Below the pieces are notes generated by a model. It saw only the letters and a list, made by a program, of their open reading frames with translations. It was not told the origin of the DNA and did no database searches. A DNA stretch of 61,965 nucleotides from Bacteroidota bacterium (lineage in GTDB: Bacteria > Bacteroidota > Bacteroidia > Flavobacteriales > Flavobacteriaceae). The stretch spans positions 1 to 61,965 of the forward strand of contig CANFVB010000001.1 of NCBI GenBank assembly GCA_947450355.1. Reading direction: 5' to 3'. A program made the translations under genes and the position numbers. Within the stretch, counting starts at the first letter, position 1; every line of letters starts with the position of its first letter. Shown here one piece after another: positions 16,283 through 39,573 of the stretch.

Positions 16283-16294
16283 ATAAAATTTAAA

Positions 16295-19019: not shown

Positions 19020-21425
19020 ATGAAAAAAATATACAATTCAAAATTTCACTTTTCAAAAGGTTTAGTATTAACTTTATTCATTTTGATCTTTTTTACCGTT
19101 ACTGGACAAGTTTCAAATAAAGGAAATTTAGCTATTTTTAACAATGGAACTTTTTATGTAAAAGGCGCGTTTGTATTTGGTTCTACAGGACTAGTGAAAA
19201 CTTCAAGAACAGCGGGTACTTATGGAAAAATATCTTTTTCTCCAATAGCTACTATAACGGGTGTTTCTGGAACACAATTTACAGATGGTTATGTTAGAAA
19301 ACAGGGAGATTCAGAATATCTATTTCCAATCGGACAATCGTCTAGATATGCTCCATTAAAAATTATTCCTACTATTGATTCTGCAATAGATGCTGCTTAT
19401 TTTGCGGTGGATCCAAACACCTTGGGAATTGGTTTGGACGCTTCATCAGTTTCTTACATTTCAACATCTGAATATTGGGATATTAGTAGTCCAGTATTAG
19501 GAACAACCTCTAAAATTTCTTTGACTTGGAGAGCAACATCTAGCGGTGTTCAAACTATTGCAAATGGTGTTTTTGATGATTTGGTAATAGTTGGACTAAG
19601 AAGAACTTCAAACAATTGGGAGCAGATACCTTCTATAATTGATGTAACTTCAGTTTTATCTGAAACAAGTTCTATTACAGGTGGTGGTTCAATAACTTCA
19701 TTTAATGATGTTGTATTGGATGATTATTCCGCATTTACACTAGGAAGAAAAGGAATTTGTTCATTACTTATTTCAGCATCTGGAGCAACAAAAACATGGA
19801 ATGGTAGTTGGGATAATGGCGCACCTAATTTGAGTGATCGTGCAGTAATTAATTCCGCTTTTTCAGGTCCAATTTCTTGTAATTCACTGCAATTAAATGC
19901 TGATTTAACTTTGGCGAATGGTCAACTTGCTGAAATTGTAAATGGAGTAACTGGAGTAGGTAAAATCATTATGGCAAATCAGGCTAGTGTTGTTCAAAGA
20001 AGTACTTCCACAGATAGACCAAATATAGAGTTAACAAAACAATCGCGTCCAATGCGTGGTTTTGATTATATTTATTGGGGTACACCAACAGTTGAAAATG
20101 TCTTTTCTCAATTGGCGGAAGCCAAAGCACAAACAGGTACATTATTGGGAGCTTTAGATTTAAAATATTACTATCAATCAGGAACTGGTGGAGGTTGGCG
20201 TACATTAACGGCTACGGAACCAGGAAAAGGATTTATTACAAGAGTTAAAAACCAAGCTCCATTTGATACATTTACTTCATTGCAATATGACAATATAAAT
20301 TTAAAATTTTCAGGAACAGCAAATAATGGTGATGTTTCAGTAGGTGTTACTAGAAATCCTACAAACATTAACGGAGGAACAAGTCATAATTTACTTTCAA
20401 ATCCCTACCCTTGTGCTATTGATGGTGATAAATTTTTAATAGGGAATCCTAATTTAGACGGTGTTATTTATGTATGGCAAGCAGTCACTCAAAATCCAGG
20501 TACTGTTACTGCTTACGGGCAGGCGGATTATGTTCCTTACACAAGAGCTGGTTTTGCAGCAGCAACTTGGGCTTCACGAGAAAGATTTTTAGGAAAATTA
20601 TCATCTGGTCAAGGGTTTTTAGTTAAATATTTAGATGTAGTTTCAGGCGTTCCTACTCCAACAACGGGTACAATAACGTTTACAAACTGTATGAAGATGG
20701 TAGCTAATAATTCTAATTTTATTAGAGCAACAGAAGAAGTTGTTATTAAAGACCGATATAAATTAAATATGAGTGGAAGTAACAGTGTATATAGTCAAAT
20801 ATTAACTGCTTATTTACCGGAATGTACTTATGGATATGATAGAATGTATGATGCCCCAAGAAATTCGGTAAGTACTGCAAAACTTTATAGTATTCTAGAA
20901 ACTGTCGGAACGAAATTAGCAATTAATGCTCGTCCAAGTTTTGTAATTACGGATGTAGTTCCGCTTGGAGTTAGTAAATCTACTGCTGCCGCTGAAGATT
21001 TTACAATAGGAATTTCAGATAAAGAGGGTGTTTTTGATACTGGAGGAATATCTGTATTCTTACATGACATTTTGTTAGGTACGTATCATGATTTTGCAAC
21101 TGGAGATTATACTTTTACCGCTGATGCGTTAGCTATTGATAACAGATTTGAAGTTGTATATCAAAGTCCTACCGTTTTAAATACTCCCAATTTTAATGTT
21201 GGACAAATAATAGCAAATATTAGTTCAAATATAATTACAGTTTCTTCAACTAACGAAATGAAAGGTATTGAAATTTTTGATATTTCAGGAAGAAAAATAC
21301 AATCCTTTGAATTGAATGGAGCAACTTCAATGGTAAAACCATTCGTATTTGCGGAAGGAATTTATATTGCCAAAATTAAGTTAGAAAATGGAGCATTAGT
21401 CAGTCAAAAATTAATTAATAAATAA
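19020..21425 (+). CDS. T9SS-secreted surface protein, candidate hub of the fibre locus
   Basis: Signal peptide; DGYVRKQG..FPIG, SEYWDI, LSNPYPCAID; C-terminal domain IEIFDISGRKI..GIYIAKI..KLINK. Confidence 0.85.
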   Translation: MKKIYNSKFHFSKGLVLTLFILIFFTVTGQVSNKGNLAIFNNGTFYVKGAFVFGSTGLVKTSRTAGTYGKISFSPIATITGVSGTQFTDGYVRKQGDSEYLFPIGQSSRYAPLKIIPTIDSAIDAAYFAVDPNTLGIGLDASSVSYISTSEYWDISSPVLGTTSKISLTWRATSSGVQTIANGVFDDLVIVGLRRTSNNWEQIPSIIDVTSVLSETSSITGGGSITSFNDVVLDDYSAFTLGRKGICSLLISASGATKTWNGSWDNGAPNLSDRAVINSAFSGPISCNSLQLNADLTLANGQLAEIVNGVTGVGKIIMANQASVVQRSTSTDRPNIELTKQSRPMRGFDYIYWGTPTVENVFSQLAEAKAQTGTLLGALDLKYYYQSGTGGGWRTLTATEPGKGFITRVKNQAPFDTFTSLQYDNINLKFSGTANNGDVSVGVTRNPTNINGGTSHNLLSNPYPCAIDGDKFLIGNPNLDGVIYVWQAVTQNPGTVTAYGQADYVPYTRAGFAAATWASRERFLGKLSSGQGFLVKYLDVVSGVPTPTTGTITFTNCMKMVANNSNFIRATEEVVIKDRYKLNMSGSNSVYSQILTAYLPECTYGYDRMYDAPRNSVSTAKLYSILETVGTKLAINARPSFVITDVVPLGVSKSTAAAEDFTIGISDKEGVFDTGGISVFLHDILLGTYHDFATGDYTFTADALAIDNRFEVVYQSPTVLNTPNFNVGQIIANISSNIITVSSTNEMKGIEIFDISGRKIQSFELNGATSMVKPFVFAEGIYIAKIKLENGALVSQKLINK

Positions 21426-21463: not shown

Positions 21464-22753
21464 ATGAAAAAAACAGTAATAACATCCGTATTAGTATTAA
21501 CATTTTGTAGTCTATTTTCCCAAGAAAAAGATACAATAAGAGGTAGTGAATATAACAAATGGTCAGTTGAATTTAATGTTGGAACAAACAAAGGAATAAA
21601 ACCTTTTAGTACAGGTTATTTTTCATCCAATGAGAATAAGTTTTTTAACATGTCCAAAGTAAATCATTTTGATATTGGAGTAAGAAGAATGCTAAGTATA
21701 AAATTTGGACTTAAATTTGATTTTGCCTCTGACAATTTTTCAAATCAAAATGGTAGTGGGTCACTGCCTTTTGAAACACAACAATATAGAATCGGTTTGC
21801 AGGGTGTAATGAATCTAGCACGTGTTCTTTCATTTGAAGAATTTACACAACGTTTTGGTTTATTGGCTCATGCAGGTATTCAAGTAGCGAAATTTACTTC
21901 AAAATATGGTGTTTCAAATGGAGCTTCTGAAAATAATGGTGGATTGATTTATGGTTTAACCCCTCAAATTAGAATCACAGATAAATTAATTTTCACGGCT
22001 GATTTTACAATGGTATCAAATGTACGTCAGCATTTAAATTGGGACGGTAGCACATCTGCAAAAGATAATAATCTTACTGGAGAAATGTACAATACCTCTA
22101 TAGGACTTACTTATTATTTTGGGAACAAACAAAAACATGCAGATTGGTATATACCAGCTGCAGTAGTAGTTCCAGATCCAGAAGTAATTAAGCATTTGAA
22201 AGACATCGATATTTTGATGAAAGATACAGATAGAGATGGAATTGTAGATCATTTAGACCGTCAAAACAATACTCCTTCAGGTGTTACAGTTGATAGTAAA
22301 GGACAATTTATTGATGCTAATTTAAATGGAGTGCCAGACGAAATGGATCCAAAACCTAAAGATGGTATTGATGGTGTTTCAAAAGTGGTAATTGCACAGT
22401 CAGATGCTATTCAATCATTAATTGAGAAAGGATTTGTGAATTTATTTTATGATTTAAACAAAGATGAACCAAATGTAGGATCAACAAATAATGTTTATTA
22501 CATAATTAAATTTTTAAAATCGTATCCTACGGCAAAAGCTTCTTTAATGGGTTATACAGATGTTAAAGGTTCTGCGGCTTATAATCTTAAGTTATCTGAA
22601 AGAAGGGTGAAAAACATTTATAATATTATTGTTTCAAATGGAATAGATCCAAAAAGAGTTACCGTTTTAGGTAATGGAGTAGATAAAGATTATTCAACTG
22701 ATACTAAAACTGGTTTAAGTTTGGCAAGACGCGTATCTATAATTTTAGAATAA
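21464..22753 (+). CDS. OmpA-family protein (N-terminal beta-barrel, TSP3-like Ca-binding repeat, OmpA peptidoglycan-binding domain)
   Basis: Barrel ending IGLTYYFG; DTDRDGIVDHLD; GYTDVKG..YNLKLSERR..RRVSI. Confidence 0.9.
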   Translation: MKKTVITSVLVLTFCSLFSQEKDTIRGSEYNKWSVEFNVGTNKGIKPFSTGYFSSNENKFFNMSKVNHFDIGVRRMLSIKFGLKFDFASDNFSNQNGSGSLPFETQQYRIGLQGVMNLARVLSFEEFTQRFGLLAHAGIQVAKFTSKYGVSNGASENNGGLIYGLTPQIRITDKLIFTADFTMVSNVRQHLNWDGSTSAKDNNLTGEMYNTSIGLTYYFGNKQKHADWYIPAAVVVPDPEVIKHLKDIDILMKDTDRDGIVDHLDRQNNTPSGVTVDSKGQFIDANLNGVPDEMDPKPKDGIDGVSKVVIAQSDAIQSLIEKGFVNLFYDLNKDEPNVGSTNNVYYIIKFLKSYPTAKASLMGYTDVKGSAAYNLKLSERRVKNIYNIIVSNGIDPKRVTVLGNGVDKDYSTDTKTGLSLARRVSIILE

Positions 22754-22953: not shown

Positions 22954-24318
22954 ATGAATTTTACTAAAATGAAAAAAAACAACTTTATAATAATATCCTC
23001 GCTTTTACTATTTTCAATGATAGTAAAAGCTCAAGTGGGTATTGGAACTTCAAGTCCTGATGTTTCCTCTGTGATTGATGTTTCTTCGGTTACCAAGGGA
23101 ATGCTATTGCCGAGAATGACCTCAATTCAAAGGAATGGGATTGTTCCAGCTGCATTGGGACTTATTATTTACAACACAGACGTAAGTCAAATTCAAGTTA
23201 ATATTAGTACAATTCCATTAGTTCCACAATGGACTGGAGCAGTTTCTTCTTTGGTTCATTCGGGTACAGGAGCGGGTTCGGTCATTGGAGGAGGTTCTTC
23301 AAATACAGCAAGTGGTGATGGTTCAACAGTGGCGGGAGGAAGTTCTAATGTTGCTTCTGGAGCATATTCAGCAATTGGAGGTGGTTATTCAAATACAGCA
23401 TCTGGTGCAAATTCTGCAATTGCAGGAGGAACAACTAATGTTACTTATGGTGAAGCGGCTTCAATTACGGGAGGTACTTCAAATTATGCGGAAGGAGCTA
23501 AGTCACATATTGGTGGCGGGGTATCTAATTATACTTTGGGAGCAGCGTCTGTTATTTCTGGAGGAACTTCAAATCAAACAATAGGAGCTGCTGATGCAAT
23601 CCTCGGAGGAACTGGTAATTTTGCTAATGGTCCTGCTGCGGCTGTAGTAGGTGGAACTACAAATTTAGCCACTGGTAGTGTTGCTTTTGTTGGCGGTGGT
23701 TTAACCAATAAAGCAACGGGTGTACAATCTGCAATTTTAGGAGGTACTGCAAATGTTGCTTCTGGATTATCTTCTTCTATTTCTGGTGGAACTGCAAATA
23801 ATGCTATTGGTGCTAATTCTACTGTTTCAGGTGGAAATGTAAATATTGCAACTGGAGCGCAATCTTCTATTTCAGGAGGAAATGCTAATAACGCTATAGG
23901 AACGAATTCATCTGTTTCTGGAGGAATAGGGAATACTGCCAATTCTTTTGGGGAATGGGTGGGAGGATTGTACGGAACGATTCCAAGTTTGCAAAGTGCC
24001 TCTGGTTTTGAACCATCGGATCGATTGTTTAATATTGGAAATGGTAGTTTAGGAACGCCCTCAAATGCTTTAACAATTCTTAAAAATGGTTTGGCTACTT
24101 TACCAAGTATAACCAATGGTTTAATTACTGGTGACGCAAGTGGAAAAGCCATTGTAACCAAAGAATTCACAGATGCCAATTATGCTAAATTTAGTACAAT
24201 TGCACCTTTGGGTATGAATTCAATAGGGGTTTTAGGTGAAATCCGAATGACTTCTAGTTTCATTTACGCTTGTGTAGCTTCCAATAATTGGATTAGAATA
24301 GCAGTGACACCTTGGTAA
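22954..24318 (+). CDS. Array paralogue 1, class A: Gly-rich 15-aa solenoid fibre protein (15 repeats); alternative start 22969
   Basis: Signal peptide + QVGIGT module; S-x-[IV]-[GS]-G-G-x-x-N-x-A-x-G-x-x repeats; DRLFNIGNG; C-terminal GEIR...YAC...W. Confidence 0.85.
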   Translation: MNFTKMKKNNFIIISSLLLFSMIVKAQVGIGTSSPDVSSVIDVSSVTKGMLLPRMTSIQRNGIVPAALGLIIYNTDVSQIQVNISTIPLVPQWTGAVSSLVHSGTGAGSVIGGGSSNTASGDGSTVAGGSSNVASGAYSAIGGGYSNTASGANSAIAGGTTNVTYGEAASITGGTSNYAEGAKSHIGGGVSNYTLGAASVISGGTSNQTIGAADAILGGTGNFANGPAAAVVGGTTNLATGSVAFVGGGLTNKATGVQSAILGGTANVASGLSSSISGGTANNAIGANSTVSGGNVNIATGAQSSISGGNANNAIGTNSSVSGGIGNTANSFGEWVGGLYGTIPSLQSASGFEPSDRLFNIGNGSLGTPSNALTILKNGLATLPSITNGLITGDASGKAIVTKEFTDANYAKFSTIAPLGMNSIGVLGEIRMTSSFIYACVASNNWIRIAVTPW

Positions 24319-24417
24319 TAAATTACATAAGTAATGTCAATTGAAGTTTAATAAACTTAAATTATTTCAATAGTCCATAAAAGTTTAGAAAAATAATAAC
24401 CAAATAATTTATTTAAA

Positions 24418-25617
24418 ATGAAAAATAACAAATTAATAATAAGTGTAGTTATACTACTTATTTCAGTGTTATCAATACAAGCCCAAATAGGTATAGGAAC
24501 ATCAAGTCCTGATGTCTCATCATTGTTAGATTTATCATCTACAACTAAAGGTTTTTTATTACCTCGTATGACAACGGTTCAACAGCAAGCTATGCTTAAT
24601 CCTGCTATTGGATTAATTGTTTTTAATACAACAACTGGAGCTGTTGAAACGAATAAAGGAAATTCTTTCGGAACCTATTGGGTTGGGGCAACAGGAGCCA
24701 TGGGAACAACAGGACCAACAGGACCAATGGGATTAACTGGACCAGCAGGTTCGCTTTCAACTGTTGGTGCTGGAGTGGCAAATTCATCAACTGCTGAAGG
24801 AGCTACTATTGGTGGTGGTTCAACCAATATGGCGTGTGGTATAAATTCAACCGTTGTGGGAGGGACAACCAATGTTGCTTGTGGTGAAAATTCTATAGTT
24901 GGTGGTGGTTCAACCAATCAAGCAACAGCTTTGAACTCAAGTGTAGTGGGTGGAACAACCAATCATGCTTTTGGAGTAAATTCATTTGTTGGAGGTGGTA
25001 CCACAAATTTGGCTAATGCACTTAATACAAGTGTTTCTGGAGGAACAACAAATCAAGCATTGGGAATTGCATCTTGTGTTTTGGGAGGTACTTCTAATAC
25101 TGCTAATGGTGAAAACTCAAATATTGGCGGCGGTTCTGCTAATATTACAAATGGATTAAATTCAGCAATCGCAGGTGGACAATCAAATATTGCTTCTGGA
25201 GATTATTCTTCAATTTCTGGAGGTAGGTATAACTTTGCAAAATCTTATGGAGAATGGGTTGGTGGGCTTTATGGTACAGATTATACCGCTGCGTCAATAT
25301 CTACCTTTCAGCCTACAGATCGAATTTTTAATATCGGTAACGGATTGGGAGGATCTACACGTTCTGATGCTTTGACTATTTTAAAAAATGGTTTGGCCTC
25401 ACTGCCTTCTGTTACCAATGCTTTAATTACTACGGCAAGTGGGAAGGCAATTATTACAAAAGAATTTGCAGATGCTGCGTATGTGAAAATTAGTACTGTT
25501 GCTCCACTTTCGTCTGGAAGTACTGGAATAGCTGGAGAAGTAAGAATTACAGCAACCTATATTTACACTTGTATTGCTACAAATGTTTGGGTTAGAACTG
25601 CTGTTGAGACTTTTTAA
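24418..25617 (+). CDS. Array paralogue 2, class A with collagen-like linker (10-11 repeats)
   Basis: QIGIGT module; GATGAMGTTGPTGPMGLTGPAGS; 15-aa repeats; same C-terminal module. Confidence 0.85.
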   Translation: MKNNKLIISVVILLISVLSIQAQIGIGTSSPDVSSLLDLSSTTKGFLLPRMTTVQQQAMLNPAIGLIVFNTTTGAVETNKGNSFGTYWVGATGAMGTTGPTGPMGLTGPAGSLSTVGAGVANSSTAEGATIGGGSTNMACGINSTVVGGTTNVACGENSIVGGGSTNQATALNSSVVGGTTNHAFGVNSFVGGGTTNLANALNTSVSGGTTNQALGIASCVLGGTSNTANGENSNIGGGSANITNGLNSAIAGGQSNIASGDYSSISGGRYNFAKSYGEWVGGLYGTDYTAASISTFQPTDRIFNIGNGLGGSTRSDALTILKNGLASLPSVTNALITTASGKAIITKEFADAAYVKISTVAPLSSGSTGIAGEVRITATYIYTCIATNVWVRTAVETF

Positions 25618-25673
25618 TACTAGCTGTCAATCTCAATTATTTAGAATTTTATTTTTAGAAAATTAAAGCATTT

Positions 25674-26891
25674 ATGAAAACAAATAAATATTTTTCGATA
25701 CTTATATTTCTTTTATTATCAGGAAATATTTTCGCTCAAGCAGGTATAGGTACATTTGTTCCCCATAGTTCAGCACTTTTGGAAGTTTCGGCTTCTTCAA
25801 ATAAAGGATTTTTATTACCAAGGATGACCACTTTACAACGTGATTTATTATTAAATCCAGCCAATGGATTAGTAGTTTACAATACCAATATGGGCGAAAT
25901 TCAATCTAATGCAGGAACAACACTTCATCCCAAATGGTCAGGTTCCATTGGTGCTATTGGCGATACAGGTCCAATTGGTCTTACTGGAGCTCGAGGCGCA
26001 AGTTCTATTATTACTAGAGTTATAACTGGAACAGGAAATTCAGCTATTGGAGTTAATGCTACTGTTGGTGGCGGTACAGGTAATTCAGCTATTGGGGTTA
26101 CAAGTACTGTTGGTGGCGGTACAACCAATCAAGCTGTAGGTGCCAATTCATCAGTTGGTGGCGGTTCCCATAATGTTGCTGTTGCGGTATGTACTAGTGT
26201 TTTTGGAGGGATAGATAATAATACTAATGGAACTAATTCTTCAGTTGGGGGTGGTACAAATAATTTTCCAATAGGTAATAATACTGTTATTGTAGGAGGG
26301 AGTTATAATTCTGTTTCCTCGGTTAGCATCGATGGTTGTATTGCTGGTGGATTTTCAAATAATGTATTATTAGTTTGTATTGACTGTAATATTGCTGGAG
26401 GTACATTAAATGTAACTAACGAACTTAATTGCACTGTTTCTGGTGGTACTCAAAATGTAGCTAATGGAATATCTGCAATAGTTTCAGGAGGTGTTTCCAA
26501 TACTTCAAAATCTTATGGAGAATGGGTTGGTGGATTATTTGCTACTGAATATGCACCAACTTCTGCCATAGGAGTAGTTGTGACTGATAGGGCTTTTACA
26601 ATTGGAAATGGAACGGCAATTGGTACTCGCTCCGATGCAATGACAGTTTTAAAAAGTGGTGTAGGTATTTTACCAAGTGTTACTAATGCTTTAATAGCTG
26701 CAGGTAATGAAAAAGCAATAATTACTAAAGAATATGGAAATGCTACTTATTATAAATTCAAAACAGATGCACCTGCTTCTGCAAGTTCAATTGGAACATT
26801 AGGAGAAATTCGTATAACACCAACTCATATTTACACTTGTATAGCGACAAATACATGGGTAAAAACAACTGCAATTTCAGGTAGTTGGTAG
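25674..26891 (+). CDS. Array paralogue 3, class A with collagen-like linker (about 10 repeats)
   Basis: QAGIGT module; GSIGAIGDTGPIGLTGARGAS; two repeats extended to 17 aa, with Cys. Confidence 0.85.
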   Translation: MKTNKYFSILIFLLLSGNIFAQAGIGTFVPHSSALLEVSASSNKGFLLPRMTTLQRDLLLNPANGLVVYNTNMGEIQSNAGTTLHPKWSGSIGAIGDTGPIGLTGARGASSIITRVITGTGNSAIGVNATVGGGTGNSAIGVTSTVGGGTTNQAVGANSSVGGGSHNVAVAVCTSVFGGIDNNTNGTNSSVGGGTNNFPIGNNTVIVGGSYNSVSSVSIDGCIAGGFSNNVLLVCIDCNIAGGTLNVTNELNCTVSGGTQNVANGISAIVSGGVSNTSKSYGEWVGGLFATEYAPTSAIGVVVTDRAFTIGNGTAIGTRSDAMTVLKSGVGILPSVTNALIAAGNEKAIITKEYGNATYYKFKTDAPASASSIGTLGEIRITPTHIYTCIATNTWVKTTAISGSW

Positions 26892-26909: not shown

Positions 26910-28208
26910 ATGAAAAATAGCAATCAAATTTTATTCGTTTTTTTCTTATTGTTTTCAGGAATGATAACAGCTCAAATAGGAATTGGAACTTCAAGTCCAG
27001 ATAAATCATCTGTTTTAGACTTAACTTCAAATAATAAGGGATTATTGGTTCCTAGAATGTCATCCGCAAAAAGAGATTCAATACTTCTACCTCCAAAGGG
27101 ATTAATTATTTTTAATACCACTTCAAATGCAATTGAAATAAACAGTGGAACGTCAACAATAAAATCATGGGGTGGGTTGTCTGGTAGTTCTGCGTCCAAT
27201 TCAAGTTTTTTGTCTGCGAATGAAGCAAGTGAAGTGACTACGTTGTCCCCTTTAGATGAAATTATTCCAGGGATGACTTTATCTCCGCAAGCGGGTACTT
27301 ATTCCGTTTCGTTTAATAGTCAATACAATAGTGCTCCCTATAATTACGATGTAAATATTACGCAACAAGGAGTTTCGGATTTACAGGCTGTATATAATAA
27401 ATTAATTATTATTCCAACAACAAATTCAACCCACGCTCCAGTTTTTGGAAATGGAGAAGTGCTAAACTCTGGAGTATTTTCAACAGGAGCAGCTACGTCA
27501 GTTTCTGGAACACTTGTTTTGGATGCACAAGGAAATCCTAATGCTATTTTTATATTTAAAGTTGGAGGTGCTTTTACTTCAAGTGCTGGATCTGAAGTTG
27601 TTTTGGTAAATGCTGCTTCTGCTTGTAATGTTTTTTGGATTGCAGAGGGAGCAATAGCTTTGGCAGCTGCTACAAGAATGAAAGGAACATTATTAGGACA
27701 CAATGGCGCAGTTGGAATGGCTGCTGGTTGTCAACTGATTGGGAGGTTATTTTCAACCATGGGAGCTGTAACAACTGATGGTTCGTCTGTTCTAATTCCT
27801 TCAAATTGTTCTTATATTAATTTAGGGGTTTTATCAACTTTTGCTCTTTATACATCAGTTGGTGCGGTAACAAATGCTGGAATATCTTCAATTACAGGAG
27901 ATATTGGTTCAAACGTGGGACTTATTAGTGGTTTTACAACTTCTACTTTAGTTGGTACAACCTATACTAATTCAAGCCCTTTGGTCAATATAGATGCCAA
28001 TGTTCTAGCAACTTTCAGTGTATATCAAAATGGGATTTTAGTTCCAAATTCTAGTAGAATAAGAAGAAGTAAGTCAGACACTACAGATATTTCTTTACAA
28101 GCTATTGCAACCGTTTTAGCAGGACAAACAATTGATATTAGATGGAAAACAGATGTGAGTGCTCTAAAAGTAGGAAGTCGAATTTTGACAATCATTAAAG
28201 TTCAATAA
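26910..28208 (+). CDS. Array paralogue 4, class B: permuted DUF3494 ice-binding domain inserted in a C1q/BclA-CTD-like head
   Basis: DLQAVYNKL, LDAQGNPNAIFIFK, CNVFW, GRLFST, followed by INLGVLSTFALYTSVGAVTN..ITGDIG. Confidence 0.85.
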   Translation: MKNSNQILFVFFLLFSGMITAQIGIGTSSPDKSSVLDLTSNNKGLLVPRMSSAKRDSILLPPKGLIIFNTTSNAIEINSGTSTIKSWGGLSGSSASNSSFLSANEASEVTTLSPLDEIIPGMTLSPQAGTYSVSFNSQYNSAPYNYDVNITQQGVSDLQAVYNKLIIIPTTNSTHAPVFGNGEVLNSGVFSTGAATSVSGTLVLDAQGNPNAIFIFKVGGAFTSSAGSEVVLVNAASACNVFWIAEGAIALAAATRMKGTLLGHNGAVGMAAGCQLIGRLFSTMGAVTTDGSSVLIPSNCSYINLGVLSTFALYTSVGAVTNAGISSITGDIGSNVGLISGFTTSTLVGTTYTNSSPLVNIDANVLATFSVYQNGILVPNSSRIRRSKSDTTDISLQAIATVLAGQTIDIRWKTDVSALKVGSRILTIIKVQ

Positions 28209-28223: not shown

Positions 28224-29624
28224 ATGAAAAACTTTAAATTATATTTTTTAATAGTATTCATTACTATTTCAGGAACTAGTTTTGCTCAAATAGGAATTGG
28301 CACAAATACTCCAGATCCTTCTGCGTTATTGGATTTAAATTCAACTTCCAAAGGTCTATTAATGCCTAGAATGACCACTTTGCAACAAACGAATTTAGTA
28401 CGACCAGCCATTGGATTGACAATTTATAATACAACAACAAGTCAAATAGAAACCAATAAAGGCGATGGACTTGGGGGAGCTTTATGGACTAGTGCCTCAA
28501 CAACAGGAACAACAGCATTGCCTGGAACCAATACAAATCAATTGGCTACAACAGCATTTGTATTAGCAAATAATTTTGGAAGTTACGCTTCTGTAAATGA
28601 AATAGTACCAATATCAACAACTTCATTAACAGATGTTTTAGTAAATGGAATGATTGTTTCACCACCTTCAGGAACTTATTCGGTGTCATTTAATAGTCAA
28701 TATAATAATGATTTTATTACTACTACTGTCACAGGCACTGGTATTTCAACTTCACAAGCTGCCGTAGATTTACAAGCTGCATACAATCAATTGATAGCCA
28801 TTCCTGTGACTAATACTACTCATATTCCTGCCTTTGGAAGTGGAGAAACAATTACGCCTGGTGTTTATTTTATTCCAGGTGCTGCTTCTGTAGCTGGTAC
28901 TTTAATTTTGGATGCACAAGGAAATTCAAATGCACTTTTTGTATTTAAAACAGGTGGTGCCATGGCTGCTGGTGCTGCAACTATTATAGTTTTAGCAAAT
29001 GGTGCTGAAGCTAGAAATGTTTTTTGGGTTTCTGAAGGTTCCCCAAGTGTTGGAGCTGCATCTACTATGAAAGGCACAATGATAGGTCATAATGGAGCAG
29101 CATCAATGGCTGCAACGGGAGTATTAGAAGGAAGACTTTTGACTATTTTAGGAGCGGTTACCTTTGGACCAGGGACAGCAATAATTCCTTCAGGAGTTTC
29201 CCCAATTGATTTAGGAGTATTGTCAAGTTTTGTACTTTATACAAATAATGGGGCAGTAAGTAATACAGCAATATCTAACATTACGGGTGATATAGGAACT
29301 AATGTTGGCGCAATTACAGGTTTTGAAATCTCTACAATAGAGGGAAATTTTTATACCAATAGTTCTCCTGTCACAAACCCATCAACAGTAACTACAACAG
29401 TAATTAATGACACTAAAACTCCTGCTACTTTCAGTATTTATCAAAATGGAATATTAATTCCAAGTTCAACTAAAACATTAATAAGTGATGCCAACGCTGC
29501 AAATATTTCTTTACAAGCAATCGCAACAATAATTACAGGACAACCAATTGAAGTGAGATGGAAAACTGCGGCAGCTAAATTAAGTATGGGGAATAGAACA
29601 TTGACAGCAATAAAAATTCAATAA
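28224..29624 (+). CDS. Array paralogue 5, class B ice-binding family protein
   Basis: DLQAAYNQL, TITPGVY, LDAQGNSNALFVFK, NVFW, EGRLLT; tail-fibre-like GTNTNQLATTAFV. Confidence 0.85.
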   Translation: MKNFKLYFLIVFITISGTSFAQIGIGTNTPDPSALLDLNSTSKGLLMPRMTTLQQTNLVRPAIGLTIYNTTTSQIETNKGDGLGGALWTSASTTGTTALPGTNTNQLATTAFVLANNFGSYASVNEIVPISTTSLTDVLVNGMIVSPPSGTYSVSFNSQYNNDFITTTVTGTGISTSQAAVDLQAAYNQLIAIPVTNTTHIPAFGSGETITPGVYFIPGAASVAGTLILDAQGNSNALFVFKTGGAMAAGAATIIVLANGAEARNVFWVSEGSPSVGAASTMKGTMIGHNGAASMAATGVLEGRLLTILGAVTFGPGTAIIPSGVSPIDLGVLSSFVLYTNNGAVSNTAISNITGDIGTNVGAITGFEISTIEGNFYTNSSPVTNPSTVTTTVINDTKTPATFSIYQNGILIPSSTKTLISDANAANISLQAIATIITGQPIEVRWKTAAAKLSMGNRTLTAIKIQ

Positions 29625-29635: not shown

Positions 29636-31042
29636 ATGAAAATAGTCAAAAATTATAATTTTATACTATTAATTATCATTTCAGCATCTAGTTTTGCTCA
29701 AATAGGAATTGGTACAAATATTCCAGATCCTTCTGCAATATTAGATTTAAATTCATCTTCGAAAGGTTTATTGATACCAAGAATGACCACTTTGCAACAA
29801 ACGAATTTATTAAATCCTGCTATAGGATTACTGATTTACAATACCACGACAAGTCAAATAGAAACCAATAAAGGAAATGGGTTCGGTGGGGCTTTATGGA
29901 CAGGCGCATCAACATCTGGAACAACTGCCATTATAGGTACAAATACGTCTCAACTAGCTACAACTGAATTTGTATTAGAAAACTCTGATGGATATTCCTC
30001 TGTAAACGCTTCAATAGAAACTGCTACTACCTCTTCTACGAACGAATTAATAGCAGGAATGGCATTAACACCTCCCGCAGGATTATATTCTGTTTCATTT
30101 AATAGTCAAATTAATAATGCAGCTGTTACAACCGTTACAACTCAAAACACATCAATAGGAACAGCTCAAGGTGTGATAGATTTACAAGCTGCATACAATC
30201 AATTGGTAGCTGTTCCAACAACTAATTTCTCTCATATACCTGCGATGGGAAGTGGTGAAACATTACTTCCAGGTGTTTATTTATTTCCAGCCGCAGCTTC
30301 AATAGCGGCAGTATTAAATTTAGATGCTCAAGGTAATTCAGACGCAGTATTTATTTTCAAAATAGGTGGTGCATTTGCCATTGGTGCAGTCTCTTCAATT
30401 GTGTTGCAAAACGGAGCCTTAGCACGAAATGTTTTCTTTGTTTCCGAAGGAGCAATTAGTGTTGGTGCCACTTGTATAATGAAAGGAACATATATTTCTC
30501 ACGCAGCAGCACTTGCTTTTAATGCGGGAAGCAATCTTGATGGGCGATTTTTTACAATGACTGGAGCAATAACTTTTGGACCCGCAACGGCAATTGTACC
30601 ATTGGGAGCATCTCCAATTAATTTAGGCGTGTTAACAAACTTTGCTATTTTTACAGGTGCTGGGGCTATTTCAAATGCTGGAATCTCAACGATTATCGGT
30701 AATGTTGGAACGAATTCGGGAGCAATAACAGGTTTGGAAATTTCAAATGTTACTGGGACAGTATATACCCCAGATTCAATAGTTGTTTATACTCCCCCAA
30801 TAACTACCACCACAACCACTACTTCTACATCACCTATATTAGCAACCTTTAGTATTTTTCAAAACGGAGTTTTAGTACCAAATTCAAGTCGTACTATTGT
30901 AAGTAATTTAAATGTAACAAGTGTAAATTTACAAGCAATGGCAACTGTCTCAACTGGTCAAACAATTGATGTTCGTTGGAAAATAGATTCAGGCAAAGTA
31001 GCGATAGGGAATAGAATTTTAACTTTAATTAAAGTACGTTAA
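29636..31042 (+). CDS. Array paralogue 6, class B ice-binding family protein
   Basis: Same architecture; closest to paralogue 5. Confidence 0.85.
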   Translation: MKIVKNYNFILLIIISASSFAQIGIGTNIPDPSAILDLNSSSKGLLIPRMTTLQQTNLLNPAIGLLIYNTTTSQIETNKGNGFGGALWTGASTSGTTAIIGTNTSQLATTEFVLENSDGYSSVNASIETATTSSTNELIAGMALTPPAGLYSVSFNSQINNAAVTTVTTQNTSIGTAQGVIDLQAAYNQLVAVPTTNFSHIPAMGSGETLLPGVYLFPAAASIAAVLNLDAQGNSDAVFIFKIGGAFAIGAVSSIVLQNGALARNVFFVSEGAISVGATCIMKGTYISHAAALAFNAGSNLDGRFFTMTGAITFGPATAIVPLGASPINLGVLTNFAIFTGAGAISNAGISTIIGNVGTNSGAITGLEISNVTGTVYTPDSIVVYTPPITTTTTTTSTSPILATFSIFQNGVLVPNSSRTIVSNLNVTSVNLQAMATVSTGQTIDVRWKIDSGKVAIGNRILTLIKVR

Positions 31043-31060: not shown

Positions 31061-32515
31061 ATGAGGAATCAAAATCGAATTGTTTTAATGTTGATTTTTT
31101 TAATTTCTGTAATTTCAAATGCCCAAACCGGCATAGGTACTTCTAGTCCTGATGCTTCCTCTATTATGACTATTAACTCCTTTGAGAAAGGAATGTTATT
31201 GCCTCGATTGAATTTAGGAGAACGAAGATTAATAAATTTTCCAGCAAATGGATTGCTTATTTTTAATACTACTTTTAAAAATATTGAAGTAAATAGCGGT
31301 ACTGCATCACAACCTTTTTGGACAAGTGTTACTGGTTCGCAAGGGTTTTCTGGAATTAGCACTGGAACCGGAGTTTCAGGAGCTGACATTGACCCAATTA
31401 CACTTCAACCTATCGATGTGTTAAATTACGCTACGGGACCTTCTTCTTATATTGGCGGTGGTGTTAATAATTCTGCTTCAGGTGCATTTTCTGTTATTGG
31501 CGGTGGTACTACTAATTTCACGATGGGTGCTTATAGTGTTGTTTCAGGAGGTTCTACTAATGAAGCAGATGGAATTCATTCAACAATAGCGGGTGGTACT
31601 ACGAATAATGTAAGCGGTGACACTGCAAGTGTTTCTGGGGGTACTACAAATAATGCGAGTGGTATGAATTCTTCAATTGGCGGTTGCACATCTAATAATA
31701 CCTCAGGAATAAACGCACACATTGGCGGTGGTTCTTCAAATAATAGTTCTGGTATCAATTCTAGTATTGGCGGTGGAGTTAGTAATTTAGCTTCTGGAGC
31801 TAATTCATCAATTTCTGGTGGGACTTCTAATATTGCAAGTGGTGCTCATTCAACAGTTTCGGGGGGTACCTCAAATCAGGCTTTGGGTTTAAGTTCCAGT
31901 ATTGGTGGTGGGACTTCAAATATTGCTAATGGAGAAAGTAGCACTGTTGGTGGAGGTACTTCAAATATTGCAGACGGATTCAATGCAACTGTTGGTGGAG
32001 GAACCGATAATAAGGCTTATGATTTGGCATCAATAATTAGTGGGGGGACTTCAAATAGAGCCAATGAGTCTTATTCTTCTATATCGGGCGGTACTTCAAA
32101 TATTTCAAATGGGGATTATTCATCGGTTTCAGGAGGGTTTACCAATCTTTCAAATTCGTATGGAGAATGGACTGGTGGATTAAATTCTCCAGGTTATGTT
32201 GCTATTTCAACAACTGAATTTTCTATACAAGATAGACTTTTTAATATTGGATGTGGTGCAAGTTTTGAGGTGTTTTCTTTATATAAAAATGGATTAGCAA
32301 CATTGCCAAATGCAACTATTGTTGGAATTGAAAGTGAAATTAAAGCAATCACAACAAAAGCATATACAAATGCTACCTATTCTAGAATTTCAATGATAGC
32401 TCCATTATCAGCAACAGCTCCAGGATTTTTGGGAGAAATTAGAATTACCCCTCAATATATGTACACTTGTGTTGCTATAAATAGTTGGGTGCGTACTGAA
32501 ATGAATACTTGGTAA
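31061..32515 (+). CDS. Array paralogue 7, class A (16 repeats)
   Basis: QTGIGT module; SSIGGGTSNIANGES-type repeats; C-terminal GEIRITPQYMYTC..W. Confidence 0.85.
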   Translation: MRNQNRIVLMLIFLISVISNAQTGIGTSSPDASSIMTINSFEKGMLLPRLNLGERRLINFPANGLLIFNTTFKNIEVNSGTASQPFWTSVTGSQGFSGISTGTGVSGADIDPITLQPIDVLNYATGPSSYIGGGVNNSASGAFSVIGGGTTNFTMGAYSVVSGGSTNEADGIHSTIAGGTTNNVSGDTASVSGGTTNNASGMNSSIGGCTSNNTSGINAHIGGGSSNNSSGINSSIGGGVSNLASGANSSISGGTSNIASGAHSTVSGGTSNQALGLSSSIGGGTSNIANGESSTVGGGTSNIADGFNATVGGGTDNKAYDLASIISGGTSNRANESYSSISGGTSNISNGDYSSVSGGFTNLSNSYGEWTGGLNSPGYVAISTTEFSIQDRLFNIGCGASFEVFSLYKNGLATLPNATIVGIESEIKAITTKAYTNATYSRISMIAPLSATAPGFLGEIRITPQYMYTCVAINSWVRTEMNTW

Positions 32516-32543
32516 ATGTGAATATTAAAATAATAAAATAAAA

Positions 32544-33977
32544 ATGATTACTAAATATAACGTTATTCAGGTTTTAACATTCTTCTTATTTTCTGCATTT
32601 ATGTATGCTCAAATAGGATTGGGAACAGTTGCACCAGATAGTTCCGCTATTTTAGATTTAAGTTCAACCAATAAAGGTTTTCTATTGCCAAGGATGACAG
32701 GGATTCAGGAAAATTTGATTGTTTTACCAGCTCACGGACTATTGGTTTTTAATACCACTACCAATTATATTGAAGTGAATAGTGGTTCTACAAATTTTCC
32801 GGTTTGGGTTAATATTATTGGAATAAAAGGCGAAACAGGTTCTGGAGGAACACTTGTCAGTGGGGTTACCAACGAAGCAACAGGACCTTCTTCAACAGTT
32901 GGTGGGGGCGAATTTAATTCAGCTACAGGCCTTAATTCAGTAGTTTCTGGAGGAAATAACAATACCGCATGTGGAGCCAATTCAGTTATTTCAGGAGGTT
33001 TGTATAATATTTCATGTGGTTCACTTTCAACCGTATCGGGAGGATTTGATAATACAGCCACGGGTTTTGCATCTACTATTTCAGGAGGTACTTCTAATAC
33101 TGCAACTGGGGCAGGAGCTGCTATCGGTGGAGGTTCTTCAAATGTTGCGTTTGGAGCCAATGCAAATATTGGTGGCGGAACATTAAATTCTGCTTGGGGT
33201 GCTAATTCAACAATTTCTGGAGGAATTAGTAATTATACTTTTGGTGGTGCGTCTTCAATAGCTGGGGGAACTTTTAATAAATCAATTGCGCCAAGTTCAA
33301 GTGTCGCTGGAGGTACTTATAATCTTGCTTCTGGTGCAAGTTCAAGTGTGGGCGGGGGAGATTATAATACTGCAAATGCACCAAGTTCAAGTGTTGGAGG
33401 AGGAACCTATAATACTGCAAGTGGGGCAAGCGCAACAGTTTCAGGCGGAAATCATAACGAAGCATTTGGGGCTTCTGCTACAGTTTCTGGAGGGGCTCAA
33501 AATAGTGCTAGTGGCGATGCTTCTTTGGTTTCTGGTGGAACAGATAATAAAGCAAGAGGAATAAATTCGACAGTTTCAGGTGGTATTGGAAATTTTGCAA
33601 ATTCCTATGGAGAATGGGTTGGGGGAGTTTATGGGACAGATTATACGGCTACTTCTTTGACTGGTTTTTTTGGTTTTGATAGGGTTTTTAATGTTGGAAA
33701 TGGAACAAGTTCAACTTCAAGATCAAATGCCCTAACTATTTTAAAAAACGGGTTGGCAACTTTACCGTCGGTTACTATCACATTGATAAATGAAGCTAAC
33801 GGACAGGCGGTTACTACAAAAGAATATACAGATGCAACCTATGTTAAATTTGGAATTGTAGCTCCAGTATCTGCTAACTCTCCAGGAATTGTTGGGGAAG
33901 TAAGAATGACAGCAACTTATATATATACTTGTATTGCAACAAATACTTGGGTAAGAGCAGCGGTATTAACTTGGTAA
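32544..33977 (+). CDS. Array paralogue 8, class A (about 17 repeats)
   Basis: QIGLGT module; 15-aa repeats; SYGEWVGG, DRVFNVGNG, GEVRMT..YTC..W. Confidence 0.85.
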   Translation: MITKYNVIQVLTFFLFSAFMYAQIGLGTVAPDSSAILDLSSTNKGFLLPRMTGIQENLIVLPAHGLLVFNTTTNYIEVNSGSTNFPVWVNIIGIKGETGSGGTLVSGVTNEATGPSSTVGGGEFNSATGLNSVVSGGNNNTACGANSVISGGLYNISCGSLSTVSGGFDNTATGFASTISGGTSNTATGAGAAIGGGSSNVAFGANANIGGGTLNSAWGANSTISGGISNYTFGGASSIAGGTFNKSIAPSSSVAGGTYNLASGASSSVGGGDYNTANAPSSSVGGGTYNTASGASATVSGGNHNEAFGASATVSGGAQNSASGDASLVSGGTDNKARGINSTVSGGIGNFANSYGEWVGGVYGTDYTATSLTGFFGFDRVFNVGNGTSSTSRSNALTILKNGLATLPSVTITLINEANGQAVTTKEYTDATYVKFGIVAPVSANSPGIVGEVRMTATYIYTCIATNTWVRAAVLTW

Positions 33978-34003: not shown

Positions 34004-35386
34004 ATGAAAAATACATATCTATTATTTACAACAGTTTTATTACTAACGTATGCGTTTGCAAATGCGCAAATTGGCATTGGAACCAATACTCCGGATGCAT
34101 CAGCTTTATTGGATTTATCGTCAACTACCAAAGGATTATTATTACCAAGAATGACAACTTTACAACAAACGGCTTTGGTAAGTCCAGCCATTGGGTTAAC
34201 TATTTTTAATACCACATCAGGACAATTAGAAATCAATAAAGGAGATGGATTAGGCGGTGCATTATGGACAGGAATTACCGCTACTACTGGAGTGACGGCT
34301 CCTTTAGGAACAAATACTACTCAATTAGCTACCACAGAATTTGTTTTAGCTAATTCTGGTAATTATATTTTTAAGGAAGGATTTGGAGATATTACGACTG
34401 ATTTAACAACAGACGTATTGGTTTCAGAAATGACCTTATCACCGATAGCAGGAACGTATTCTGTTTCTTTTAATGGACAATATAGTAATAGCCCAACAAT
34501 TTCAACTTCAACAATTTCTACAGGTCAATGTTTGGTAGATTTAGTTGATGTTTATAATCAATTACAAGCGATTCCAATAAATTTTACCAATCATAATTTT
34601 AATTTTGGAAATGGAGAAGCAATTTTACCAGGAAAATATTCTGTAGGAAGTGCCATTGCTGTTGCAGGGACATTGACTTTGGATGGGGGTGGAAACCCAG
34701 ATGCTATTTTTATTTTTAAAGCTTTAGGAGCTATAAATACGTATTCAGGAACGTCAATTGTATTGACGAATGGAACGAAAGCCTGCAACGTTTTTTGGGT
34801 TGCTGAGGGAGCCGTTGGAATTGGCGCCAATACAATTATGAAAGGAGTTCTTATTGCTCATGGAGCTGCAGTAGCGGTTGGAGCAGAAAGTATGCTTGAA
34901 GGAAGAATGTTTTCTACTTATGGAGCAGTAGCTTTTGGACCAGGTGTAGCTACAATTCCCATAGGAGTTTGTCCCGCTGTTAGTTTAGGTGTATTGTCTT
35001 CTTTTGTTCTTTTTACAGGAGGAGGAGCAATTAATAACACGGGTGCTTCAACATATAATGGTGATATTGCTACGAATGCTGGTGCAACTGGGAGCCTTGC
35101 TGCCGCTGTTGTAAACGGAACTATTTTTCCTGAAAATGCAAGTGCGAGTGTCACAACTACTGTCGTAAATACCACTGTTGCAAAAGCAACTTTTAGCATT
35201 TATCAAAATGATGTTATCATTCCCAATTCAGTTCGGTCAGCAACAAGTAATGGAAATCTTGCAATTGTTTCATTACAATCCATTGCAACAGTAACGACAG
35301 GACAATCAATTGCTATAAAATGGAAAACAAACGTAGGGGCTTTAACGCTTGGAAACAGAACACTAACATTAATAAGAGTACATTAA
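34004..35386 (+). CDS. Array paralogue 9, class B ice-binding family protein
   Basis: Start set to ATG 34004 (MKNTY + signal peptide); GTNTTQLATTEFV; permuted DUF3494. Confidence 0.85.
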   Translation: MKNTYLLFTTVLLLTYAFANAQIGIGTNTPDASALLDLSSTTKGLLLPRMTTLQQTALVSPAIGLTIFNTTSGQLEINKGDGLGGALWTGITATTGVTAPLGTNTTQLATTEFVLANSGNYIFKEGFGDITTDLTTDVLVSEMTLSPIAGTYSVSFNGQYSNSPTISTSTISTGQCLVDLVDVYNQLQAIPINFTNHNFNFGNGEAILPGKYSVGSAIAVAGTLTLDGGGNPDAIFIFKALGAINTYSGTSIVLTNGTKACNVFWVAEGAVGIGANTIMKGVLIAHGAAVAVGAESMLEGRMFSTYGAVAFGPGVATIPIGVCPAVSLGVLSSFVLFTGGGAINNTGASTYNGDIATNAGATGSLAAAVVNGTIFPENASASVTTTVVNTTVAKATFSIYQNDVIIPNSVRSATSNGNLAIVSLQSIATVTTGQSIAIKWKTNVGALTLGNRTLTLIRVH

Positions 35387-35395: not shown

Positions 35396-36781
35396 ATGAT
35401 TAAAGCATATCTATTATATACAACAGTTTTATTATTTGCTTATGCAAATGCAAATGCGCAAATTGGAATTGGAACCAATACTCCAGATGCCTCTTCATTA
35501 TTAGATTTGTCGTCAACAACAAAAGGATTATTATTACCAAGAATGACAACTTTACAACAAACGGCTTTGGTAAGTCCAGCCATTGGGTTAACCGTTTATA
35601 ATATTTCAAACAACCAAATAGAGACCAATAGAGGTGACGGAATAGGAGGCGTCTTCTGGACAGGAGCTAATACAAATGGAATAACCGCTGCTATTGGAAC
35701 CAATACAACTCAATTAGCAACAACTGAATTTGTAATTTCCAATTCAAATAAATTCAACTCTATAAATGCAACAAGTCCGCTTTTGACAACAGCAACTGCT
35801 GATGCAGTTATATCAGGAATGACAATTTCGCCTCCAGCAGGAACGTATTTTGTGAATTTTAATAGCCAATTTAATTACTCACAAGCTCCAGTTATTAATG
35901 CTCCAATTGAAATTAGTACTGCTCAGGCAGTATTAGATTTACAAACGGCATACAATCAACTGAATGCGCTTGTTGTTACTGATGCAACTCATGCAGCTGT
36001 TTTTGGAAATGGAGAAACGCTAACTCCGGGTGTTTATTCTATAGCTGCTGCAGCTGCGATGCTTGGAACCTTAACATTAGATGGACAAAATAATTCAAAT
36101 GCTGTTTTTATTTTCAAAATTGGTGCTGCCTTCAATACGGGTGCGGGAACAACAGTACTATTAACTAACGGAGCAAGTGCTTGTAATGTTTTTTGGGTGG
36201 TAGAAGCCGCTATTGGATTGGGCGCAATTACAAAAATAAAAGGAACTATGATTTCTCACGGTGCGGCTGTTGGTGCAGGTGCAGGTTGTATAATTGATGG
36301 AAGAATGTTGACCACTGCAGGTGCAATTACTTCTGATAATTTAACTTTAAATATTCCTTTAAATTGTTCGTATATAAATCTTGGTGTTTTGTCAACTTTT
36401 GGAATGTTTACAACTGCTGGAGCCATTGCAAATACTGCAATTTCGGCTATTAATGGAAATGTAGGTACTAATTTTGGACTTATTACGGGTTTAACTCCAA
36501 CTATGGTTACAGGTACTATTTTTCCTCCAGGAGGAACAGCGGTTTTACCTGTTGCTATATCACCAATAACAAGTGGTTTTGGTACTTTTAGTATTTATCA
36601 AAATGGAGTATTAATTGCTAATTCTAATAGAACAAAAAAAAGCACATTAGTATTAGATGAGGTTACATTGCAAGCCATTGCTACAGTTGAAACTGGGCAA
36701 ACCATTGATATTAGATGGAAAACAGACCAAGGAGGATTGACAGTTGGAAATAGAATATTAACAATTATCAATGTAAGGTAA
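35396..36781 (+). CDS. Array paralogue 10, class B ice-binding family protein
   Basis: DLQTAYNQL, TLTPGVY, LDGQNNSNAVFIFK; 71 bp identical to paralogue 9 in the N-module. Confidence 0.85.
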   Translation: MIKAYLLYTTVLLFAYANANAQIGIGTNTPDASSLLDLSSTTKGLLLPRMTTLQQTALVSPAIGLTVYNISNNQIETNRGDGIGGVFWTGANTNGITAAIGTNTTQLATTEFVISNSNKFNSINATSPLLTTATADAVISGMTISPPAGTYFVNFNSQFNYSQAPVINAPIEISTAQAVLDLQTAYNQLNALVVTDATHAAVFGNGETLTPGVYSIAAAAAMLGTLTLDGQNNSNAVFIFKIGAAFNTGAGTTVLLTNGASACNVFWVVEAAIGLGAITKIKGTMISHGAAVGAGAGCIIDGRMLTTAGAITSDNLTLNIPLNCSYINLGVLSTFGMFTTAGAIANTAISAINGNVGTNFGLITGLTPTMVTGTIFPPGGTAVLPVAISPITSGFGTFSIYQNGVLIANSNRTKKSTLVLDEVTLQAIATVETGQTIDIRWKTDQGGLTVGNRILTIINVR

Positions 36782-38310: not shown

Positions 38311-39573
38311 ATGACTATATCTAAACAATTCGTTTCGGCACTGTTTATCGTTTTGCCCTTGTTCGCTTTAGCACAAATAGGAATTGGAACCAATAATCCA
38401 GACCCCAGTTCCATTTTGCATTTGTCATCCACATCGAAGGGAATTCTTTCGCCTAGAATGACTACTCAAAATAGAGATGAAATAAACAATCCAGATCAAG
38501 GACTATTAATTTATAATACATCGACTTCTAATTATAATTTCTACGATGGCAGTTGGAATGATTTTTCTACACAGTACAAAACCGTCGGAGTATTAGGAGA
38601 TGTTACAACCAATTCAAATACAGCCGTTGTTGTTGAAGGAATGAATTTAGTTCCTTCAGCTGGGACTTATTCTGTAATGTTTAATAGTCAGTTTAAGAAA
38701 CAGGTATTCAATACTTTTTCAACCGAGCAAGCTTTGATTGATTTAAATACGGTTTATGAAACAGTATATAATTATTCATTACCTAACATTTTACATTCAA
38801 ATACTTTTGGAAATAACGAAATTCTATTTTCAGGAATTCAAACTTTCCCCTCTCAAGCTTTCGCAAATGAAACTCTGACTTTAGATGGTCAAAATATCCC
38901 AGATTCTAAATTTATTTTCAAAATAGGAGCAGGGCTTACTATTGAAGCGGGATTTACTATTGTTTTAATAAATGGTGCAAAGGCAAGCGATGTTTTTTGG
39001 ATAGCTGAAAGTACTATTGAAATTGGAGTAGGAGCTTCTTTGAAAGGAACTTTTATTTCTCATGGAAGCTCAATAAATGTTAGTGCAGGAACAACACTTC
39101 AAGGAAGATTGTTTTCTACATCTGGTACAATAAATCTAAATGCTTCATCGGTAACAGTTCCAACTACAGTTTCCACAATTGATTTAGGGGTGTTGTCTAA
39201 TTTAGCATTGTTTACTGGTAATGGTGCGATTATTAATACTGGTGTTTCTTCCATAAATGGAAATGTAGCTACTAATTCGGGTTCAATTTCTGGGTTGAAT
39301 TCTACCTCTAATAGTATTTTATATCTGCCGTCGAATATAATTCCAATTCTAATTTCTGATGCTGTTGCTTCTTTCGGCATTTATCAAAATGGAGTTTTAA
39401 TTGAAAATTCGGTACGAGTTAATAAAAGCAACGGAAATCAAATTCAACTTTCATTACAAACAATTGCAACTGTTTTAGATGGCGAAACTATTGATGTAAG
39501 ATGGAAATGTGATAATGATGGAAACGTAATTAAAATGGGAAAAAGAACGCTTACTTTAATCAAAGTGAAATAA
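38311..39573 (+). CDS. Array paralogue 12, class B (divergent DUF3494)
   Basis: LTLDGQNIPDSKFIFK, DVFW, QGRLFST, then IDLGVLSNLALFTG. Confidence 0.8.
   Translation: MTISKQFVSALFIVLPLFALAQIGIGTNNPDPSSILHLSSTSKGILSPRMTTQNRDEINNPDQGLLIYNTSTSNYNFYDGSWNDFSTQYKTVGVLGDVTTNSNTAVVVEGMNLVPSAGTYSVMFNSQFKKQVFNTFSTEQALIDLNTVYETVYNYSLPNILHSNTFGNNEILFSGIQTFPSQAFANETLTLDGQNIPDSKFIFKIGAGLTIEAGFTIVLINGAKASDVFWIAESTIEIGVGASLKGTFISHGSSINVSAGTTLQGRLFSTSGTINLNASSVTVPTTVSTIDLGVLSNLALFTGNGAIINTGVSSINGNVATNSGSISGLNSTSNSILYLPSNIIPILISDAVASFGIYQNGVLIENSVRVNKSNGNQIQLSLQTIATVLDGETIDVRWKCDNDGNVIKMGKRTLTLIKVK

Follow-up and report, generated by a model that had tools for sequence, protein, structure and literature searches.

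The ice-binding domain DUF3494 folds as a beta-solenoid whose coils are not stacked in chain order, and this discontinuity is a constant of its solved and modelled members in the accessible parts of PMC11645318, PMC11912409 and PMC9957290; the first of these, as far as available, has it retained in all the variants reviewed there. In the canonical IBP-1 domains (IBP, ice-binding protein), coil 1 is followed by a long helix and coils 2-6 are stacked in reverse. Natural shifts of the coil division around the helix are also described, within the same accessible parts, for the non-canonical DUF3494 (PMC11645318) and the rotifer-type DUF3494 (PMC11912409). In the rotifer type, the nearest precedent in this literature for the domain reported here, two of the six coils precede the helix. 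The closest solved relative, at 42% identity, is IBPv of Flavobacteriaceae 3519-10 (5UYT; PMC5673226), which has two complete canonical domains, A and B, in tandem. We analysed a stretch of 61,965 nucleotides from a Bacteroidota bacterium of the Flavobacteriaceae (assembly GCA_947450355.1, contig CANFVB010000001.1; called the window below), in which the DUF3494 domains of 11 paralogous genes have coil 1 at their end instead of their start. We favour, with moderate confidence, the explanation that this circularly permuted domain is inserted in a loop of a head resembling those of the tumour necrosis factor (TNF) and C1q proteins, that it folds as a continuous solenoid, and that its trimers are likely exported as three-armed tips binding ice or other surfaces.

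The element order is the same in all 11 paralogues: long helix, coils 2-6, short linker, coil 1. The original prediction had claimed a circular permutation in every one of these genes, and both the claim and its positions in the gene 26910-28208 (helix from 27357/27360, GR motif at 27741, coil-1 segment from 27816) stand. The features of this gene and of an insert-less relative are as follows.

26910..26972 (+), signal-peptide-like N-terminus, with cleavage before Gln22 judged by eye from the sequence
26973..27179 (+), PF26696 PTL_trimer, a phage-tail-like trimerisation region, from precomputed Pfam annotation of homologues
27204..27332 (+), N-terminal half of the TNF/C1q-like jelly-roll head, residues 99-141
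27357..27410 (+), long helix opening the DUF3494 domain
27441..27794 (+), canonical solenoid coils 2-6
27795..27815 (+), short linker that bridges the native C- and N-termini, containing Cys300, the partner of Cys239
27816..27968 (+), canonical N-terminal coil 1, relocated to the domain end
27984..28208 (+), C-terminal half of the TNF/C1q-like head, without a type IX secretion system (T9SS) sorting domain
43989..44648 (+), insert-less gene: signal, PTL_trimer, intact head; orthologue L021:9263-9934

A profile built from 51 domains of the permuted family matches the canonical structures in two swapped blocks. Profile positions 3-151 and 150-203 correspond to residues 83-231 and 23-76 of 6EIO, and positions 3-154 and 154-203 to residues 63-212 and 8-56 of 7BWX. 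The two blocks cover almost the entire canonical chain and place the cut between residues 76 and 83 of 6EIO. The second blocks are weak on their own (independent E-values 0.15 for 6EIO and 0.048 for 7BWX); against residues 6-45 of 5UYT the second block gives a clear match (1.5e-7). With the tandem 5UYT the profile is collinear over residues 57-264, crossing the A-B junction. Among 120 homologues, picked from 404 matches by whole-length likeness, every one keeps the permuted order together with the second half of the head, and each has one core and one coil 1, not the two complete domains of a tandem. The coil-1 segment is kept in 120/120, with invariant glycines. All 11 domains are recognised by the DUF3494 profile PF11999, each above the cut-off (72-123 bits vs 28.7), and depart from the canonical discontinuous order; since coil 1 comes after coil 6, we class them as a permuted homologue of DUF3494 and not as canonical members. 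That the permutation is real we regard as practically certain.

The original prediction had the order right and overlooked that the domain is an insertion. Residues 99-141 and 359-432 make up one jelly-roll that surrounds the DUF3494 insert, and in the gene 43989-44648 the two head halves are joined directly in an otherwise same protein. Swapped order, insertion between head halves and insert-less sister gene are all read directly from the sequences.

The model of the mature protein reached a predicted local distance difference test (pLDDT) of 88.5 and a predicted template modelling score (pTM) of 0.64, and the excised domain (residues 146-357) was modelled as one rigid body (pLDDT 96.7, pTM 0.93), a beta-solenoid braced by a long helix. 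Canonical single domains (6BG8, 7BWX, 3WP9) align to the first 154-157 residues of the excised-domain model only, with root-mean-square deviation (rmsd) 1.4-2.5 A across some 150 residues and Z 17.7-19.4, and its last 50 residues extend the solenoid. Continuous beta-helices of unrelated proteins, by contrast, can be aligned over model residues 21-212 without any change of chain order, at ~3 A (4WA0: Z 12.4, 161 residues, 3.2 A). The collinear fit to the tandem 5UYT has an rmsd of 17 A, and the segment is therefore not positioned like coil 1 of domain B. From these three kinds of fit it follows that the moved coil continues its own stack in the model. The sequential solenoid foreseen in the original prediction is borne out by the sequence matches and the models, in which the downstream segment packs on the last coil. 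Judging by these models, a continuous solenoid packed in cis is very probable.

The GR motif and coil 1 are 33 residues apart in 123/125 rows, compared with a median spacing of 48.5 in 126 tandems; a value of 27 for 13/110 rows, from a regular-expression count, was not reproduced by the alignment-based count. Cys239 and Cys300 stand at the positions of the IBPv disulfide C165-C226. Both are present in 84 of the 125 rows, neither in 37 and one in 4, that is, they are present or absent together in 121/125, the rows being kin.

The domain is collinear with the part of IBPv that begins at helix A and ends with coil 1 of B, and shares with it the ice-face row and the domain-A disulfide positions; unlike IBPv, it is a single domain made from the junction piece, has a shorter linker and sits within a TNF-like head. 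All elements of the canonical IBP-1 domains (6EIO, 6BG8, 4NU2, 3WP9, 7BWX) are present, and the part made up of the helix and coils 2-6 fits them to within 1.4-2.5 A, but here coil 1 comes after the last coil, the solenoid is predicted to be continuous and the termini lie at the former cap. As far as the accessible parts of the two reports go, the helix of the non-canonical and rotifer-type domains is always preceded by one coil or more and the stack stays discontinuous, whereas the permuted domain has no coil before the helix and lacks the extra coils there that mark the non-canonical type.

The head most resembles 9IB6, a TNF-like lectin, in a match with Z 15.7 that covers 114 residues at 1.8 A and extends over model residues 78-411 around the insert; PGP3, BclA, ExsFA and C1q domains follow (Z 11-13 for BclA and C1q). 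Going by TNF topology, the insertion loop is presumably the apical C-D loop. With the known trimeric heads (PLTL 9IB6, the BC2L-C N-domain, BclA, phage fibre tips) it shares the jelly-roll fold (Z 11-16), collagen stalks in relatives and, if the model holds, a trimer through the inner sheet; it differs in having no C1q or TNF match in Pfam and in carrying a 204-residue solenoid in one loop. The insert-less gene 43989 has no Pfam match at an E-value of 0.01, C1q (PF00386) and BclA_C (PF18573) included, and its look-alikes in the atlas score 0.87-0.88 only; the head is likened to C1q and BclA and not classed with them. The naming of the N-terminal domain as PF26696 has a score of 0.93, with 10/10 named matches.

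Three copies of residues 99-431 gave a trimer score of 0.78, compared with 0.00 for the best of 3 controls, a value that may reflect likeness to solved TNF/C1q trimers; contact agreement was at least 81% and pLDDT at least 88. The score mark applied was reached by 20/30 solved homodimers and 1/23 single chains, counts that are rough here. Confident contacts fall solely in head strands (about 99-106, 130-138, 379-399 and 423-431) and include no insert residue. On this modelling, the head quite probably forms a trimer through its inner sheet. Collagen runs of 17-119 triplets occur in 6/90 related open reading frames (ORFs), and very long collagen stalks of 115-334 triplets precede the head in L027:4079-9613, L041:6171-9038 and L035:8489-10990. 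Collagen repeats are listed among the architectures of ice-binding proteins in the available part of PMC9957290, possibly including members of the permuted family.

How might permutation and insertion be connected? In canonical domains the passage from coil 1 into the helix lies at one pole of the solenoid. A cut between the two would leave both new ends side by side at that pole, where the domain could plug into a loop of the head, and the old termini are already adjacent, for which few residues would be enough to join them. Loop insertion needs adjacent ends, and the insertion in the head would thereby explain the permutation. If the piece captured from a tandem gene began with helix A and ended with coil 1 of B, both changes would have come in one step, with the linker shortened after the capture. 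We consider it reasonably probable that the domain arose in this way, from within a tandem gene. The tandem ancestor named in the original prediction stays plausible, given the collinearity of the profile with the A-B junction of 5UYT and the abundance of tandems within this phylum (they make up 116 of the 150 best of 13,836 representatives, a tandem-dominated set because ranked by summed score), but no assignment to copy A or copy B emerges for either piece.

Against this origin, the best matches of 90 cores are to tandem copy B in 52 cases and A in 38, and those of coil 1 to A in 49 and B in 41, which does not show an A-then-B pattern. The trees neither show nor reject one origin. An ancestry test on 13 tandems split 7:6 for the core and 8:5 for coil 1, and was set aside, since the A and B copies of tandems are not clades and the test cannot work. 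A single origin takes 3-4 changes on quick trees, and one clade stays acceptable under the approximately unbiased test (p 0.465) on trees of 20 of the 39 dereplicated permuted rows plus 16 tandems, with no single-domain canonical or viral rows. Three other candidate traces were discarded. The linker cysteine is no tandem relic and belongs to the ordinary C-terminus of both tandem copies; of ten 'core-coil1-core' proteins taken as intermediates, the 8 inspected have cut starts or a diverged coil 1; and P0230 is no ancestor, its two permuted units being sisters (support 97).

The module is widespread. We found 90 permuted ORFs in 53/66 genome loci (designated L below), 52 of them from Bacteroidota (23 Flavobacteriaceae, 11 Saprospiraceae, 5 Chitinophagaceae and others) and one from a record titled Patescibacteria, whose copy (L045:9062-10915) has a different repeat stalk; 13 further ORFs of the genome loci are ordinary tandems. 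One copy, L038:11898-13324 from a named Flavobacterium strain, is split across two overlapping frames. A domain-only search (110-447 residues, ~8000 candidates) added 69 new proteins, of which 28 have the permuted domain in a head, 24 are canonical singles, 14 have the core only and 2 are tandem pieces; the remaining one, P0316, is permuted but truncated, ending ahead of the head's second half. None of the 69 is a free-standing permuted domain. Alone among the top 150 representatives, P0230 has two permuted units in one head, which in series recreate the canonical junction of coil 1 and helix in mid-protein. Apparent double coil-1 matches in 4 ORFs, taken as possible extra-coil variants, are weak matches inside the core and spurious.

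Viral contigs contain 13 permuted ORFs in 12/65 loci, 12 of them with a head match. Of 9 viral loci that were scanned (50/62 ORFs), 4 have the permuted copy next to portal, protease or capsid genes, and one protein has a collagen tail-fibre part; L067 gave no phage match among its scanned ORFs. The copies L074:3140-4738, L077:4209-5822, L076:4674-5810 and L070:435-2306 lie within runs of head and packaging genes, those of L074 and L077 between the portal-position and protease-position genes. The phage copies are possibly capsid spikes.

The IBPv residues A364, A391, A410 and G429, mutation of which lowered thermal hysteresis according to the available part of PMC5673226, map to Ala221, 248, 267 and 286 here. 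This first row is Ala, Gly, Ser or Thr in 86-90 of 90 copies and the second row is small in 62-84 of 90, which gives a flat small-residue face at the ice-binding rows. The position of the hindering Leu174 of IBPv is Ala in 76/90 copies. Going by these residues, ice is the ligand that we somewhat favour, and three binding faces per tip would likely confer avidity.

Several points count against the overall explanation or parts of it. The face of paralogue 38311 is degenerate, and paralogues 39597, 40949 and 44693 each have single odd residues in the row. The hosts include lake plankton, Saprospiraceae and Chitinophagaceae, not ice dwellers alone, and DUF3494 is common in ice-free settings (PMC11645318, in the part available). 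AlphaFold may have positioned coil 1 by what it learned of the canonical fold, the trimer score may likewise owe to the solved trimers, and with no T9SS sorting domain on the proteins the export route is a guess. Finally, a whole-protein Pfam scan reports one passing stretch in 10/11 paralogues, some near the full profile (12-206 and 3-206 of 208). The original prediction expected two partial PF11999 matches in swapped order, and on its face the single stretch is the collinear full-length match that would contradict a permutation. We attribute it to the alignment running on into head strands, since the isolated upstream 61-residue segments match PF11999 in 0/11 cases and the isolated downstream segments in 4/11 (positions 3-50, E 0.005-0.18). 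The upstream stretch is common to the insert-less gene 43989, itself without a PF11999 match.

The alternative that survives best, which we nevertheless find rather unlikely, keeps the same architecture and has the solenoid face bind a target other than ice (minerals, polysaccharide, an algal or host cell surface), with the 11 diverged paralogues as an adhesin repertoire. It would fit the low pairwise identity of the paralogue domains (just 28-61%), the use of TNF-like heads and collagen stalks as adhesin and receptor-binding parts, the virion modules around the phage copies and the many hosts not from ice. Yet the small-residue row is as strictly kept as in tandem IBPv-type domains, and the hosts include a sea-ice metagenome-assembled genome (L025) and named Flavobacterium, Aequorivita and Bizionia that we take to be glacier or Antarctic isolates. 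The favoured reading, three-armed tips on a trimeric head, can also be carried further, to a mobile ice-binding fibre tip in which the permutation has made DUF3494 a plug-in part. Bacteroidota would then tether to ice through diversified adhesins, and phages would bind ice with such a tip on their virions; in this full form we find it unlikely. A domain swap, coil 1 completing the solenoid of the neighbouring subunit, would suit a protein that is likely trimeric and a segment that follows the tandem-junction path in sequence, but it is very improbable in view of a linker of constant length that falls 8-16 residues short of the one in most tandems, a rigid single-chain model and confident trimer contacts without insert residues. 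That there is no permutation at all, and we see a five-coil domain minus coil 1 with a vestigial second-domain piece or a canonical domain with the upstream strands as coil 1, is scarcely credible: the long Pfam stretch and the 7/11 downstream segments without a Pfam match alone would agree with it, but the conserved downstream segment with its invariant glycines packs on the solenoid in the model and the upstream strands belong to the head.

The paralogue proteins have a signal-peptide-like start, and we found no T9SS sorting domain by Pfam in 11/11 of them and none by NCBIfam in the 2 scanned. They are likely exported via Sec, helped by a neighbouring T9SS cargo protein. The T9SS sorting-domain protein 19020..21425 at the start of the array has full-length homologues directly upstream of the arrays in L007, L021 and L029. 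In 23/53 loci we collected 28 adjacent same-strand ORFs; leaving out 2 that resemble housekeeping Fe-S subunits, 17 of the 26 scanned, in 16 loci, match a T9SS sorting domain, many of these loci being related Flavobacterium. This suggests co-export with the adjacent T9SS cargo. Other T9SS cargo is encoded at 16268-18181 and 55498-58389 of the window: a protein with a type B sorting domain and a metallopeptidase of the M4 family.

The array at 19020-46138 has 19 same-strand genes in one run, spaced mostly by 9-115 bases, and 17/19 share the N-terminal domain. The 11 genes with PF11999 (26910-46138) account for all matches in the assembly, which is rated 83.6% complete. The other genes of the array are as follows.

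28224..29624 (+), paralogue, permuted domain 28743-29357
29636..31042 (+), paralogue, permuted domain 30155-30769
34004..35386 (+), paralogue, likely ATG start, permuted domain 34514-35131
35396..36781 (+), paralogue, permuted domain 35912-36526
36891..38195 (+), paralogue, likely ATG start, permuted domain 37344-37952
38311..39573 (+), paralogue, permuted domain 38716-39327, several bulky or charged residues on the putative ice face
39597..40922 (+), paralogue, permuted domain 40002-40664
40949..42220 (+), paralogue, permuted domain 41360-41980
42592..43956 (+), paralogue, permuted domain 43036-43671
44693..46138 (+), paralogue, permuted domain 45110-45877
19020..21425 (+), T9SS sorting-domain protein, first gene of the array
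21464..22753 (+), OmpA-domain protein in the same gene run, a linkage not kept in the loci fetched
22954..26891 (+), three sister genes that share the N-terminal domain and have Gly-rich repeat stalks, without DUF3494
31061..33977 (+), two further sister genes of the Gly-rich repeat type

The five sister genes combine PTL_trimer, long Gly-rich repeats of ~14-15 residues with regular Thr, Asn and Ser, and a common short C-terminal domain. They give just weak, below-cut-off matches to the grass antifreeze beta-roll and have homologues in L020 and L021; possibly they form a second type of surface-binding fibre. A tRNA-Thr called by ARAGORN at 26084-26160 lies inside the repetitive coding region of gene 25674 and is likely false. 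A 9-base repeat of 9.3 copies (36808-36891) runs up to the likely start codon of a paralogue and could vary in length. Between ORFs there are a 41-base tandem repeat of 8.5 copies (4327-4676) and AT-rich repeats of 63/126 bases (13088-13340). The window DNA is present in lake and freshwater metagenomes, and no RNA data set is among its listed holders.

The permuted, head-inserted DUF3494 is widespread and apparently undescribed. Our literature search, with most subscription journals and supplements outside it, found no permuted or TNF-head DUF3494; the words 'permut' and 'C1q' are absent from the accessible text of PMC9957290 and PMC12337378, though how new the form is may also depend on the circular maps in PMC11912409 and the tables of architectures in PMC9957290. 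PL002-1792, as given in the accessible part of PMC13413566, is a different lipoprotein. Annotation hides the permutation because Pfam reports one ordinary match. With a continuous version at hand in nature, one can test whether folding, stability or ice binding depends on the discontinuity; it also offers a scaffold that might be lengthened by further coils and has both ends together. The array is also a clean natural case of a permutation tied to a domain insertion, with the empty host gene beside the filled ones. Trimeric display would differ from tandem domains as a route to avidity, and the module would likely let these bacteria, and some phages carrying it, stick to ice or similar surfaces.
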